A DNA stretch of 64,000 nucleotides from Eledone cirrhosa (GCA_964016885.1 OZ024742.1:105400001-105464000); one strand, 5' to 3'; counted from the stretch's first letter, positions 22,583 to 62,360 are shown. Numbers and translations are program-made. Notes: generated by a model not told the origin, from the letters alone.

Positions 22583-22644
22583 GAACCAGTAAGACCCCGA
22601 CAGCTGAGCTCAAGCCGTTTCGACGGTCGGGGTCTTACTGGTTC
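22583..22644 (-). ncRNA. 62-nt hairpin resembling a hammerhead that lacks the CUGANGA box
   Basis: Perfect 19-bp inverted repeat. The minus strand reads gaaccagtaagacccc-gaccgtc-GAAA-cggct(tgagctc)agctg-TC-ggggtcttactggttc. Confidence 0.45.
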
Positions 22645-22736
22645 CTATTACCCACTCTACTACCTCAAGTATTGAGTACTTTGGTGCGTTATGGTTCACC
22701 TGGTTCCTTACCACACTTCCTTCGTTATATATATAG

Positions 22737-22986
22737 ATCCCAGGCCACATGCTCGATCTGTTAGGTCAAACTCGTTATAAAGAATTTTTCATTACAAATT
22801 TTTTTTATATCCCGTGAATTTCATTATAATGGAATTTCACTGTGTGTGTGTGTGTATATATATATATATACACACACACACAGTGAAATTCCATTATAAT
22901 GAAATTCACGGGATATAAAAAAAATTTGTAATGAAAAATTCTTTATAACGAGTTTGACCTAACAGATCGAGCATGTGGCCTGGGAT
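22737..22986. repeat. 250-bp near-perfect palindrome centred on (TG)n(TA)n(CA)n
   Basis: Unique arms of about 105 bp are exact reverse complements. Confidence 0.93.
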
Positions 22987-23052
22987 TGAAAAAAATTTTG
23001 TTATACTGAAAAATTTGTTATAATGGTATTCGTTATAATGGAATTTTACCTG
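22881..23052. mobile_element. Tc1/pogo-type MITE with ~23-bp TIRs
   Basis: cagtgaaattccattataatgaa ... ttcgttataatggaattttacctg, inside dinucleotide repeats. Confidence 0.65.
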
Positions 23053-23100
23053 TGTGTGTATATATATATTAAACATTTTCGCTCTACATGGCTGAATACA

Positions 23101-23390
23101 ATAAATGTAATCTGAGTTTTTTGAATATTAATAATAACATTCAATTCGTTTGCAATTATGCAAACAAGCCTCATTTTAGAAAATACTGACAGTTGGCAGG
23201 TGAACAGTGAGCTGTACTGATGAAGGGTGATACCCAGAAACATTAGTGTCTGCAGTTCTGTTTACATGCCAACACAAGAGCAAGAATGAAGGGTTCATTC
23301 TACTGACATAGCTTTAAAAATGAGGCTTGTTTGCATAATTGCAAACGAATCAAATGTTATTAATATTCGAAAAACTCAGATTACATTTAT
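23101..23390. repeat. ~75-bp inverted repeats (23101-23177 and 23317-23390) enclosing the hammerhead
   Basis: ataaatgtaatctgagttttt...caaacaagcctcatttt and its reverse complement, with a few mismatches and a 3-nt indel. Confidence 0.9.
23192..23273 (+). ncRNA. Type I hammerhead ribozyme (canonical core, GUC site after 23250)
   Basis: Helix I gctgta/tgcagt extended by gttggcaggtgaacag/ctgtttacatgccaac; CTGATGA at 23217-23223; helix II gggt-gat-accc; GAAA at 23237-23240; helix III cattagtg; GTC. The 10.1-11.1 position is an A/A mismatch. Confidence 0.85.
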
Positions 23391-25091
23391 ATATATATAT
23401 ATATATATATATATATATATATATATATATATATAATAATAATAATATTTATAGTTATGTATATAGTATAAACTATAAACAGGAAGGCCAGTAATTTCTT
23501 AATTACCTTATTACCAGTAAGAGAAATAGCTCAATGTATGAACATCAGTTGTTTTACAGAGCAGTTAAATAAATAATTTATTTATATATATATATATATA
23601 GGGCACCCACTGAAGAATTATAAGAGCCCACTTGAATAAGTATCTGTTGATCTTATACAAGCTTCTGCATAAATTGATATAATTTCACCCAACTTGTAGA
23701 AATCTTATAGTGAAACAAGTCGTTTGGGAAGTGATATATTTGATATATCTCATATGAAATGATACAGCCAATTTTTCACACAATACAATTAGTTAGCACC
23801 CCGAACGTTTAATTAGGAATATACTCAGGTATTTCCTAATGTTTGTTGAGTGAGTTGGAATTTGGCCGGAGTATCGCTATTAGCTTTCTCTGATTATGTA
23901 TTTATATATATATATATATATATATATATATATAAATAAATGACTTTGTTAGAACTGTATATTGCTAATGTCATGCAAGTGATATTTCAATGTTCTACTT
24001 GATTCTGTGTTGTCTTTTTTTTTTTTTTTGCAAGATATTAATAATATATCTATAACTGTATCTGTAATGCCCTGTTTTTGGTATTTTAGTGCCAAATTTA
24101 CATCGAGGGCTTATGGTGCAGTGAGTCAATATTTTCTATATTGATATAATTTCATTTGTATATTTCCACTCCTGATTTTTCAATATAACGGTAGAGTTGC
24201 TTCATGGTTTGTGAGTGAGCTATTTTTAGCATTCCTCCCTACACTCCACTGTCCAAGACTAGCAGTTTCAGTCTCTCAAACTTAATTATGGACAGTTAAT
24301 ATCTTGTCTAATTAAAAAGATGACTTACTGCTGAAGGTTGACTTCTTAACATTAATAATTATCCATTTAATTATGAGTCGATATTTTTTATATCGATATA
24401 ATTTCTTTTGTAAATATATATATATATATGTGTGTGTGTGTGTATTTATGTTAATGTAAATTTATGTATGTGTATGTTTGTTTATATTTTTATGTATGTG
24501 CATGTATATTCATGTGCGTTTATGTGTATGCATCATTATGTATATCATTATATTTGAATTTTTCTGATAAAGGAGTTGGTTTCTATCATAGAAATGGATG
24601 TTAAGTTAGGATGATAATGATGAAACAAACCTCCATTACTGAAAATTAGTTAATAACAGTTGTGAAGAATTATATACTGAATTTTAGAAATATTATGCAT
24701 ATTTTTACTGCTCTAATTACTTACATAATATATCTGCAAAAGTCATGTTAACTTGTCACTTTCTATACCTAACACCCAGCTTTTAGTGTATCTACAATGA
24801 TGGACAAGATGGTCGAATGGTTAAGAAGTTTGTCTTGCAAGTATTAGGTCCAAGATTTGATCCTACTGTGTGACATCTTGAGCAAGTGTCATTTACCATA
24901 GCTTTGGGTCGACCCATGCCTTCTGAGTAAAATTGGATTGACGGAAGAACCTGTTTGGAAGCCTCCCAGATGGACCAGGCTTGTCACATACTGTCACACT
25001 GAATCTCTGTAAGAATTACATTAATGATATATTTGTTTGTGGAATGCTCAGCCACTTACATGTTAATTTCATAAGTCAACCATACCTTTAA

Positions 25092-58629: not shown

Positions 58630-59664
58630 TATATATATATATATATATATATATATATATATATATATATATATATATATATAATATATAATATATATAT
58701 ATATATATAATATGTATATATATATATATATATATATATATATAATATGTATATATATATATATATATATATATAATATGTATATATATATATATATATA
58801 TATAATATATATATATATATATATATATATATATAATATGTATATATATATATATATATATAATATGTATATATATATATAATGTATATATATATATATA
58901 TAATATGTATATATATATATATTTATATAATATATATATATATATATATATATATATATATATATATATATATATATATAATATGTATATATATATATAT
59001 ATAATATGTATATATATATATATATAATATGTATATATATATATATATAATATGTATATATATATCATCATCATCATCATCATCATCAACGTTTAACGTC
59101 CGTGTTCCACGCTTGCATGGGTTTGGACGGGGGTATATATATATATAATATGTATATATATATATATATATATAATATGTATATATATATATAATATGTA
59201 TATATATAATATGTATATATATAATATGTATATATATATATATATATATATAATATGTATATATATATATATATATATAATATGTATATATATATATAAT
59301 ATGTATATATATAATATGTATATATATATATGTATATATATATGTATATATGTATATATATATAATATGTATATATATATATATATAATATGTATATATA
59401 TATATATATATAATATGTATATATATATATATATATATATATATATATATATAATATGTATATATATATGTATATATGTATATATATATATATATATATA
59501 TATATATATATATAATATGTATATATATATGTATATATGTATATATATATATATAAATATATATATATATATATATAAATATATATATATAATATATATA
59601 TAAATATATATATATAATATATATATAATATATATATATATATATATATATATGTATATATATG
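58630..59664. repeat. (TA)n array with periodic TAATATG interruptions and an embedded LINE/SINE 3' stub at 59065-59133
   Basis: Direct reading. Confidence 0.95.
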
Positions 59665-59970
59665 CAAAAGTTTTATTTAAAATTGTTGGGTTACAACAAG
59701 TAAATATTTTATAACTGACAAGTTTTTGGAGTAGATATACGATATTAAACAAATGGAAACTATATTTATAAAACCATATTTATTTCATTATACATATTTC
59801 AGGGATACCATATTAAAAATTACCTCCGTTTCTTCTTTCTCTCCGTCTTTTTTCTAACTGTGCTTAACACTATAACTAAATAATTATAAACAAATCACTA
59901 CCCAGACAGCTTCCTAATATAATGGTCGCTTATAATATGGTACGTCAAAATTATTTATAAAACTGTTTAT

Positions 59971-60047
59971 ATATTGTATTTTATCTGACGAAGGCATGCC
60001 ATATTTTTAATATGGTATCCCTGAAATATGTATAATGAAATAAATAT
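59971..60047 (+). ncRNA. Atypical hammerhead-like fold with long helix II
   Basis: CTGACGA (59985) - aggcatgccatat/atatggtatccct - GAAA (60023) - tatg-t-ataa. Helix I pairs best if residue 17 is absent. Confidence 0.55.
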
Positions 60048-60333
60048 GGTTTTATAAATATAGTTTCCATTTGTTTAATATCGTATATATGTATATATAT
60101 ATATATATATATATATATATATATATATATATAATATATATATATATATATATATATATAATATATATGGAAAGTTATATTTAAATTGTTGGGTTACAAC
60201 TAGTAAATATTTATAACTGATATAAAAGCACTCGACAAATATTTGGAGTATATTTACAATATCAAATCAACCTTTTCAAATACAAGTCGATGTTGTTACG
60301 GTATGTCGAATCTATTTATCTATAAAACTGTTT

Positions 60334-60410
60334 ATATTGTATTTTGTCTGAGGAAGGCATAGCATATTGTTAATATGATATCCCTGAAATATATATAATG
60401 AAATAAATAT
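60334..60410 (+). ncRNA. Second, diverged copy of the atypical hammerhead-like fold
   Basis: CTGAGGA (60348) - aggcatagcatat/atatgatatccct - GAAA (60386) - tata-t-ataa. The core differs from the first copy only at the variable N7 position. Confidence 0.55.
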
Positions 60411-60446
60411 GGTTTTATAAATATAGTTTCCATTTATTTAATATTG

Positions 60447-62360
60447 TATATAATATATATATATATATATATATATATATATATATATATATATATATAT
60501 ATATATATATATATATATATATATATATATATATATAATATATATATATATATATATATATATATATAATATGATGATGATGATGGTATATATATATATA
60601 TATATATATATATATATATATATATATAACATATATATATATAATATATATATATATAATATATATATATATAATATATATATATATAATATATATATAT
60701 AATATATATATATATATATATAATATATATATATATATATATATAATATATATATATATAATATATATATATATATATATATATATATATATATATAATA
60801 TATATATATATGTATATATATATATATAATATATATATATATATGTATATATATATATATATAATATATATATATGTATATATATATATGTATATATATA
60901 TATATATATGTATATATATATATATGTATGTATATATATATATATATATATATGTATATATATATATGTATATATATATATATGTATGTATATATATATA
61001 TATATATATATATGTATATATATATATATATAATATATATATATGTATATATATATATGTATATATATATATATATAATATATATATATGTATATATATA
61101 TATGTATATATATATATATATATAATATATGTATATATATATATATATAATATATGTATATATATATATGTATATATATATATATGTATATATATATATA
61201 TGTATATATATATATGTATATATATATATATATATATATATATATATATATATATGTATATATATATATAATATATATATATGTATATGTATATATATAT
61301 ATGTATATATATATATATGTATATATATATATATATATATATATGTATATATATATATATATATAATATATATATATGTATATGTATATATATATATGTA
61401 TATATATATATATGTATATATATGTATATATATATATGTATATATATATATATGTATATATATATATATATATATATATATATATGTATATATATATATG
61501 TATATATATATATATATGTATATATATATATGTATATATATGTATATATATATATATGTATATATATGTATATATATATATATATATATATGTATATATA
61601 TATATATGTATATATATATATATATATGTATATATATGTATATATATATATATATATATGTATATATATATATATATATGTATATATATGTATATATGTA
61701 TATATGTATATATATATATATATATGTATATATATATATATATGTATATATATATATATATGTATATATATATATATGTATATATATATATATGTATATA
61801 TATATATATGTATATATATATATATGTATATATATATATATGTATATATATATATATGTATATATATATGTATATATATATATATATATGTATATATATA
61901 TATATATGTATATATATATATATATATAATATATATATATATGTATATATATATATGTATATATATATGTATATATATATGTATATATATATGTATATAT
62001 ATATATGTATATATATATGTATATATATATATATATTATATATATATATTTATATATATATATATGTATATATATATATATATATATGTATATATATATA
62101 TATTTATATATATATATATGTATATATATATATATATATATGTATATATATATATATGTATATATATGTATATATATATATATGTATATGTATATATATG
62201 TATATATATATATATGTATATATATATATATGTATATATATGTATATATATATATATGTATATATATATATATATATATATATGTATATATATATATGTA
62301 TATATATATATATATATAATATATATATATATATATATATATGTATATATATATATATAT
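60447..62360. repeat. ~1.9-kb (TA)n array with G interruptions
   Basis: Direct reading; source of the spurious IYIY ORFs. Confidence 0.97.

Follow-up and report, generated by a model that had tools for sequence, protein, structure and literature searches.

A 64,000-nucleotide (nt) stretch of the Eledone cirrhosa genome (GCA_964016885.1 OZ024742.1:105400001-105464000; hereafter the window, numbered from its first base) raises the question of how hammerhead ribozyme motifs, four complete and one half, came to lie in five short islands between (TA)n tracts. We suggest, with a probability of roughly 0.75, that these islands are leftover pseudo-long terminal repeat (pLTR) ends of four families of Penelope-like elements (PLEs), whose own nuclease and reverse transcriptase (RT) would have inserted these ends into TA repeats. 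The first-pass annotation of the window had proposed several pLTR or retrozyme families mobilised into (TA)n by PLE enzymes. The link to PLEs and to (TA)n is supported, because four islands show an inverted-copy-plus-tail signature and the island 3 family is of high copy number with compensated stems. Other parts of the proposal fared less well: one of the five folds has no core, the PLE relics in the window are not linked to the islands, and (TA)n tracts hold other elements as well.

The window was scanned with a type I hammerhead descriptor in a strict and a relaxed form, the latter allowing a mismatch at the base pair at the foot of stem II, and 200 local dinucleotide shuffles served as control. 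Four complete motifs were found, all on the plus strand, with C3 at 23217, 40149, 59985 and 60348. The strict descriptor matched the last three (shuffle mean 0.015), and the relaxed form added 23217 (four matches against a shuffle mean of 0.04); in neither form was the observed count reached in any of the 200 shuffles. CUGANGA and GAAA cores, a UH cleavage site and helices I-III are present at all four sites, at 23217 only if the stem II mismatch is allowed. A looser scan (one core mismatch, or a U3-A8 core) yielded no additional motif in the window. Five hammerhead or hammerhead-derived folds had been claimed, and four of these stand well above shuffled sequence. The fifth, at 22583-22644 in island 1, does not hold up as a hammerhead: CTGANGA occurs 33 times in the window but not once within this interval, on either strand, in the descriptor scan or in looser ones. 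Island 1 therefore cannot be a ribozyme and represents a 3' half only.

Chance folding of repetitive, AT-rich DNA is barely conceivable as the source of the motifs. It would account for the Rfam search, an intended check of the earlier proposal, which gave no hammerhead family match for the whole window or for two short stretches at E values up to 5 or 10, where only microRNA and other low-complexity matches were obtained; it would also account for the motifs at 59985 and 60348 being no more stable than shuffles (z -1.6 and +0.6). The shuffle counts argue strongly against it, and for island 3 it is contradicted by a sister subfamily that keeps the core while stem II is exchanged (see below). 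We take the hammerhead motifs to be real; their cutting is a prediction from sequence.

The best preserved motif is that of island 3 (40142-40187), an intact minimal type I hammerhead with CUGAAGA at 40149, a 6-nt palindromic helix III and a predicted cut after 40180. In island 2 (23192-23273) CUGAUGA at 23217 is combined with a long interrupted stem I, a predicted cut after 23250 and a stable fold (z -5.3); this copy is probably impaired, because the base of its stem II is mismatched (A.A). The type I motifs of islands 4 and 5 occupy 59977-60042 (with CUGACGA at 59985, a long stem II and a cut predicted after 60034) and 60340-60405 (CUGAGGA at 60348), stem II being more decayed in the latter. 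In islands 2-5 the predicted cut lies 54-155 nt from the right-hand island end, i.e. the hammerhead is near the 3' end. Helix III had been described as palindromic or nearly so in most folds, and this agrees with the complete motifs, in which 6 of 6 (40149), 6 of 8 (59985), 8 of 8 (60348) and 8 of 10 (23217) positions are palindromic. The pair probability of helix III in the monomer is 0 in the three islands tested (2, 3 and 4). A helix III that is palindromic and unpaired in the monomer fits the dimer model in the portions of PMC4209133 used here. The hammerheads of islands 4 and 5 lie 363 nt apart on the same strand, in units that are not identical; their helix III palindromes could pair (-3.2 kcal/mol), so that a read-through transcript might release a 363-nt RNA.

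The inner structure of the islands, of which the first-pass annotation made little use, bears on their origin. Island 4 (59664-60088, plus strand) consists of a 71-nt tail (59664-59734), an inverted copy (59735-59820) and a sense copy (59821-60088). The inverted copy is identical at 86 of 86 nt and takes in half of the hammerhead. The sense part folds no better than its shuffles (z -0.5 to -1.1). Island 5 (60169-60452, plus strand), the second member of this family, is 91% identical to island 4 over 137-139 nt and comprises a tail of ~86 nt, about 13 nt of inverted 3' end, and a sense copy. The two tails align across the short 3' end. Since islands 4 and 5 share this junction, the tail adjoins the short end in two copies with inverted parts of unequal length (86 vs about 13 nt), which fits what would be expected of independent insertions. 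Island 2 (23070-23387, plus strand) likewise has a sense copy with its hammerhead behind an inverted partial copy of the right end (23101-23177), which is preceded by a 31-nt tail (23070-23100). The arms agree in 71 of 77 alignment columns; the minus arm runs 31 nt further before (TA)n is reached, whereas the plus arm meets (TA)n directly. An unexplained 8-nt direct repeat (23185-23192 and about 23300-23310) flanks the hammerhead module of this island.

Island 1 (22583-22725), the core-less remnant, shows the same arrangement on a smaller scale, with a perfect arm of 19 bp. A 43-nt minus piece (22625-22583) stands head to head with a 100-nt plus piece (22626-22725), and the plus piece extends about 81 nt beyond as a tail. 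Within the minus piece are the last part of stem II, GAAA, a near-palindromic helix III of 19 nt (self-duplex -26.3 kcal/mol), GUC and the 3' strand of stem I. Alternatively, island 1 may stem from a copy whose long stem I was perfect and which lost its core in one deletion. Overall, an inverted 5'-truncated copy with a one-sided tail is clear in islands 2 and 4, is present with short arms in islands 1 and 5, and is not found in island 3. Long inverted duplications had been noted in two islands; inverted duplications in fact exist in four.

Inverted arms of 77 and 86 nt next to TA flanks might also suggest that islands 2 and 4 are DNA transposons of the miniature inverted-repeat transposable element (MITE) type, with long terminal inverted repeats, a captured hammerhead and insertion at TA. 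Such an element appears to be close at hand. Between (TA)n tracts at 22737-23058 there is a 250-nt near-perfect palindrome (22737-22986; 125-nt arms, 99%) that encloses (TG)n(TA)n(CA)n, together with a diverged third part-copy. We take this palindrome, which lies between islands 1 and 2, to be genuinely MITE-like, and on its account the top microRNA matches from Rfam are considered false. A MITE origin of islands 2 and 4 is nevertheless very unlikely. MITEs would have inverted repeats of fixed length at both termini, but here the arms are subterminal on one side, with 31-86 nt of unique tail outside one arm; arm length differs between two copies of one family (86 vs about 13 nt); and the arm of island 4 contains half of the hammerhead.

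All five islands lie in gaps between (TA)n tracts, of 143, 318, 336, 438 and 292 nt for islands 1 to 5, in keeping with the earlier claim that they are bounded by (TA)n. Inter-(TA) gaps of at most 450 nt make up 7.5% of the non-TA bases but contain all four complete motifs, compared with 2 of the 29 other CTGANGA motifs. By our own arithmetic the probability of this enrichment is about 4e-4, a value that depends on a 450-nt threshold picked after viewing the data. No coding potential was seen on inspection of open reading frames (ORFs) in the islands, the longest ATG-initiated ORF being 11-58 aa. The assignment to four unrelated families was also upheld: islands 4 and 5 are alike (score 214 vs a shuffle mean of 26), and the other nine pairs score at shuffle level. 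There is no tandem array of island units within the window, and any target-site duplications at the islands are masked by the (TA)n flanks.

The (TA)n tracts are not specific to hammerhead islands and hold other elements too, in a window rich in (TA)n and decayed long interspersed nuclear elements (LINEs) as well as repeats resembling short interspersed nuclear elements (SINEs). It is therefore worth considering that (TA)n was not chosen by a nuclease, and that the islands were inserted into ordinary AT-rich DNA or survived mainly in TA-rich gaps, the tracts having grown later by slippage. The window contains 47 (TA)n tracts in 64 kb; five of the seven LINE/SINE-type 3' ends recognised by a simple pattern are within 25 nt of a tract; the MITE-like palindrome also sits between tracts; and the one purified PLE favours AT-rich DNA, not strictly (TA)n (PMC11167929, in part). 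We regard later slippage as unlikely all the same, since (TA)n is found on both sides of all five islands, including island 4, which is probably young because its inverted copy is 100% identical, and since a (TA)n preference has been published for several PLE clades (parts of PMC8557442). Islands 4 and 5 themselves belong to a 3.7-kb degenerate (TA)n block (58626-62360), which also includes two LINE/SINE-type 3' ends.

The signature of the four islands resembles that of known PLE insertions. Published extracts describe an inverted 5'-truncated copy with a tail of 30-40 nt at one end (PMC8557442, PMC3846280), and a preference for (TA)n in Naiad, Hydra and Neptune PLEs, with Octopus Naiads listed among the (TA)n inserters (PMC8557442). 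Like the endonuclease-containing (EN+) PLEs Neptune, Nematis, Hydra and Naiad in these sources, the islands have a head-to-head inverted copy, a tail at one end, and (TA)n flanks that mask target duplications; unlike those insertions, they are only 140-430 nt long and three of their tails measure 71-86 nt. Naiads themselves are not the parents, because they are described in the consulted sections of PMC8557442 as being without canonical hammerheads. A possible mechanism is offered by Poseidon PAc of Anolis, in which, according to the parts of PMC11167929 cited here, the PLE protein cuts and extends both strands and two internal starts define the tail.

We infer by analogy that the islands arose by nicking of two strands with two RT starts. 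A GIY-YIG/RT protein encoded elsewhere would nick both strands of a (TA)n tract. Synthesis of two cDNAs would then be initiated downstream of the hammerhead, from separate internal sites in the RNA of the element: the first cDNA would begin at the short end, the second 31-86 nt further out, which gives the tail. The two would terminate prematurely and be joined head to head, in many cases at the stems of the hammerhead. In PAc, two-strand cleavage with two RT starts downstream of the hammerhead would similarly produce a short end and a tail; unlike in the islands, where no such ORF is visible, the PAc ORF starts inside the hammerhead (PMC11167929, in part). The same source reports that the PAc hammerhead requires the protein for cutting and is dispensable for insertion in vitro. 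As for the islands, any hammerhead action would take place in the parental RNA, where two molecules would probably pair through the palindromic helix III, and most of the copies in the window are probably inert. Island 3 lacks an inverted part and is present as one copy; it may represent a unit made up of the pLTR only, which is mobile through RNA of its own and enzymes taken from elsewhere.

Relics of PLEs are present in the window. The claimed GIY-YIG relic was confirmed as a decayed endonuclease of a PLE with C-terminal EN and a cysteine linker (12144-12614, minus strand). Its match to Pfam GIY-YIG is below the cut-off (E 0.002), but it is 38% identical to protein P0001 (E 5e-24) and 30-43% identical to ten longer RT+EN proteins (P0004-P0013), which have an RT motif upstream. 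The cysteine linker has been tied to (TA)n targeting (PMC8557442, in part). Among seven related metagenome loci, a hammerhead motif was found downstream in three by scan and, in degenerate form, in two more by eye; two of the seven, L006 and L007, match only a short part of the relic and represent another lineage. In these two, U3-A8 variant hammerhead motifs with palindromic helix III (L006:3202-3260 and L007:3180-3240) lie downstream of near-complete PLE ORFs of 922 and 946 aa. No relative of the relic was confirmed among 52 candidates from viral contigs.

The second claimed relic, a heavily decayed and frameshifted PLE-type RT fragment (36372-36703, minus strand), lies 3.3 kb from island 3 on the opposite strand to it. 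It is the best segment of the window for a PLE RT profile built from two sequences (E 0.004), and a tblastn match to the 1.8-kb region reached E 0.011. Pfam gave no match, a word search confirmed none of 14 candidates, and Atlas matches at 0.80 or less were uninformative, so that this relic is weakly supported. Two repetitive bacterial-type proteins returned by phmmer were dismissed as compositional matches. The descriptor scan of the window showed no hammerhead beside either relic. Because the relics do not adjoin the islands, they show that PLEs have been present but not which PLE moved the islands.

Several observations count against pLTR ends as the source of the islands. Besides the Rfam result, neither PLE relic adjoins an island; linkage to RT and GIY-YIG sequences, suggested earlier as a check, is thus absent within the window, and no island could be traced there to an RT+EN ORF. 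Only one of the seven related PLE loci ends in (TA)n (a tract of 76 nt). Three of the four tails (71-86 nt) exceed the published 30-40 nt. The search with reads covered island 3, which is multi-copy; among the other islands, more than one copy is seen in the pair of islands 4 and 5. One contig of the island 3 family from sequencing run X4 has an altered core letter and another, of depth 132, a 9-nt deletion in stem II, from which it follows that many island 3 copies are decayed. Finally, island 3 looks like a fixed unit and not a random stub, given how the unit folds as a whole, one contig joined head to tail, and the small share of X1 contigs (1%) that continue into unlike sequence.

Island 3 (40011-40335, plus strand) is a ~320-nt member of a high-copy family, has no inverted copy, and is possibly a complete non-autonomous unit. 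Four sequencing runs contain part of the island; copies were sought at 82% likeness in four of seven runs, as contigs in X1 and X4 and as restriction-site-associated DNA (RAD) reads in X5 and X6. Matches were obtained with 4387 contigs of X1 and 42 of X4, and with 1629 and 1348 reads of X5 and X6, respectively. Contigs bridge 40052-40212, 40105-40294 and 40191-40331, and thus island 3 is one element. The longest contigs have depths of 6-18, against summed depths of 1e4-2e5; this suggests copies in the thousands, though such depths are no copy number. N7 is the only position of the hammerhead core that varies among 40 of the 120 variants. The loose-end consensus of 56 X1 contigs reveals a sister subfamily that keeps CUGAUGA and has three of the four stem II pairs exchanged. 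Stem I likewise varies among the copies. Core conservation and helix covariation across copies, another of the checks suggested earlier, are therefore found in this family. The stem II partners 40158 G>A (218 of 355) and 40168 C>T (152 of 369) vary in X5 at few loci and at about 1% each in X1, counted per position and not as pairs within reads; RAD counts pile up at a small number of loci (2-8 starts in the case of the stem II variants) and do not measure how frequent copies are. We disregarded RAD read ends at 40283-40286 and 40050 as being due to restriction sites. Opposite-strand joints were seen among island 3 relatives (40120/40157, depth 180).

The island 3 family invites a further reading, namely that it is a monomer of a ~320-nt non-LTR retrozyme that undergoes tandem transcription, cutting by dimeric hammerheads, circularisation, and reverse transcription into (TA)n by PLE enzymes. 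This reading concerns one family and overlaps with a pLTR origin. It is possible but rather doubtful. In animals such retrozymes are 170-400 nt long and highly self-paired, and form tandem arrays and circular RNAs (parts of PMC7229834); they are traced to pLTRs, their monomer fractions ranging between 0 and 1 (bioRxiv 10.64898/2026.07.22.740005, in part), and have been proposed to be pLTR derivatives moved by PLE enzymes (both sources, in part). Island 3 fits this description as a non-coding unit of that size with a type I hammerhead, low G+C content (39%), high copy number and a strong fold of the whole 322-nt unit (z -6.3 circular and -6.5 linear, reached in 0 of 60 shuffles, against -1.2 to +0.6 in two intron controls). 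Moreover, one X4 contig (depth 8.6) joins 40325 to 40032 on the same strand through 27 letters in which the 3' end of the element precedes its own 5' start, a further joint, between 40331 and 40068, occurs in X1, and depth remains high up to the 5' edge of the island.

On the other hand, the head-to-tail contig is a single one. An end-to-end joint is found in none of 15 of the 32 joints, nor among those given for the RAD reads; 6 joints and 21 loose ends at 39990-40016 were left out of this tally, which does not cover the 5' boundary. The same junction would result from a TA-rich truncation hot spot together with a nested insertion. The consensus that follows the 3' end is unique flank or TA-rich sequence (T/A-rich in that of 33 X1 contigs), and outside the hammerhead the variation does not favour the fold, 10 of 18 variants at paired positions keeping the pair (39 of the 40 variants considered). 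Unlike published retrozymes, with their tandem arrays and circular RNAs, island 3 is a monomer known here from DNA, and the evidence for a tandem form is one contig. The claim of a non-coding retroelement thus finds some support for 40011-40335 and none for the other four islands, which are better read as truncated PLE ends.

A bolder and more doubtful proposal is that PLEs have a SINE-like partner in the island 3 family, a fixed ~320-nt, strongly folded hammerhead RNA spread as thousands of dispersed single copies in (TA)n, not as tandem arrays, by way of a circular RNA opened at a TATA seam, and that the stubs of 140-430 nt with family-specific tails of 31-86 nt record two cDNAs primed from opposite nicks. 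If so, head-to-head stubs would make it possible to map both RT start sites in many PLE families at once.

Further features of island 3 were noted. An exact 21-24-mer of its hammerhead has no match in the metagenome, viral and prokaryote collections. An octamer-like motif, ATGCAAAT, lies in its 5' part (40050-40057). We take it to resemble the Oct-1 site of small nuclear RNA promoters, and it may be due to chance. The island appears to lie within an intron of a minus-strand coiled-coil gene (gene model by eye), whose pre-mRNA would carry the non-catalytic strand. Exon-like coiled-coil ORF pieces extend over 32131-50630 (minus strand) and possibly form one ciliary TPH-domain gene; one piece has a weak PDB match to an axonemal TPH-domain protein (E 0.018), and another exon has no match.

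How far these islands are new can be judged from published work. In PMC4209133 the pLTRs of metazoan PLEs carry minimal type I hammerheads, with many families per genome, solo motifs and opposite-strand pairs. The motifs described here agree with those in being type I, in having a palindromic helix III suited to dimers, in occurring as several unrelated families per genome, and in being mostly single and dispersed, which is there ascribed to truncated PLEs. They differ in that islands 3, 4 and 5 close stem II with A-U where G-C is usual (the sister subfamily of island 3 has G-C), in the long stem I of island 2, and in being known here without a linked ORF. The combination has thus been published before: hammerheads in pLTRs, copies that are solo or inverted, a preference for (TA)n, and the derivation of retrozymes from pLTRs. 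The supplement of PMC13282606, as consulted, assigns 6.83% of the Octopus vulgaris genome and 190 families to PLEs; the word hammerhead is absent from its text and supplement. No description of these families or of cephalopod hammerhead repeats was found in the literature, Repbase, Dfam and the bioRxiv supplements, which may list them, being outside this search. Short island motifs occurred in no paper text and not in the supplement of PMC8557442.

If our interpretation is correct, four apparently uncatalogued hammerhead-bearing families of Penelope type are added to this genome, and it becomes apparent how (TA)n tracts collect them; no general principle is altered. The very short inverted-plus-tail insertions would offer naturally occurring cases in which to test the mechanism of two start sites, known in vitro from a single lizard element, and island 3 would lend itself to the question whether retrozyme-like units that are dispersed and mostly monomeric give rise to circular RNA.

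Other repeats and coding remnants occur in the window. At 41792-45860 there is a decayed LINE with an APE endonuclease (Pfam E 1e-8) and an RT (E 6.5e-4), and this region also contains a large inverted duplication with arms of 613, 233 and 250 nt at 86-93% identity. Broken ORFs on the plus strand at 51703-53193 have non-LTR RT-like motifs and no Pfam match; we presume a resemblance to CRE/HERO elements. Two related decayed ORFs (33851-34582, without a Pfam match, and 37612-38077; 87% over 244 nt) carry motifs that we take to be similar to those of mariner-type transposases. On the minus strand, a histone 3' stem-loop match (55400-55444) was obtained at gathering score with 34 bits.

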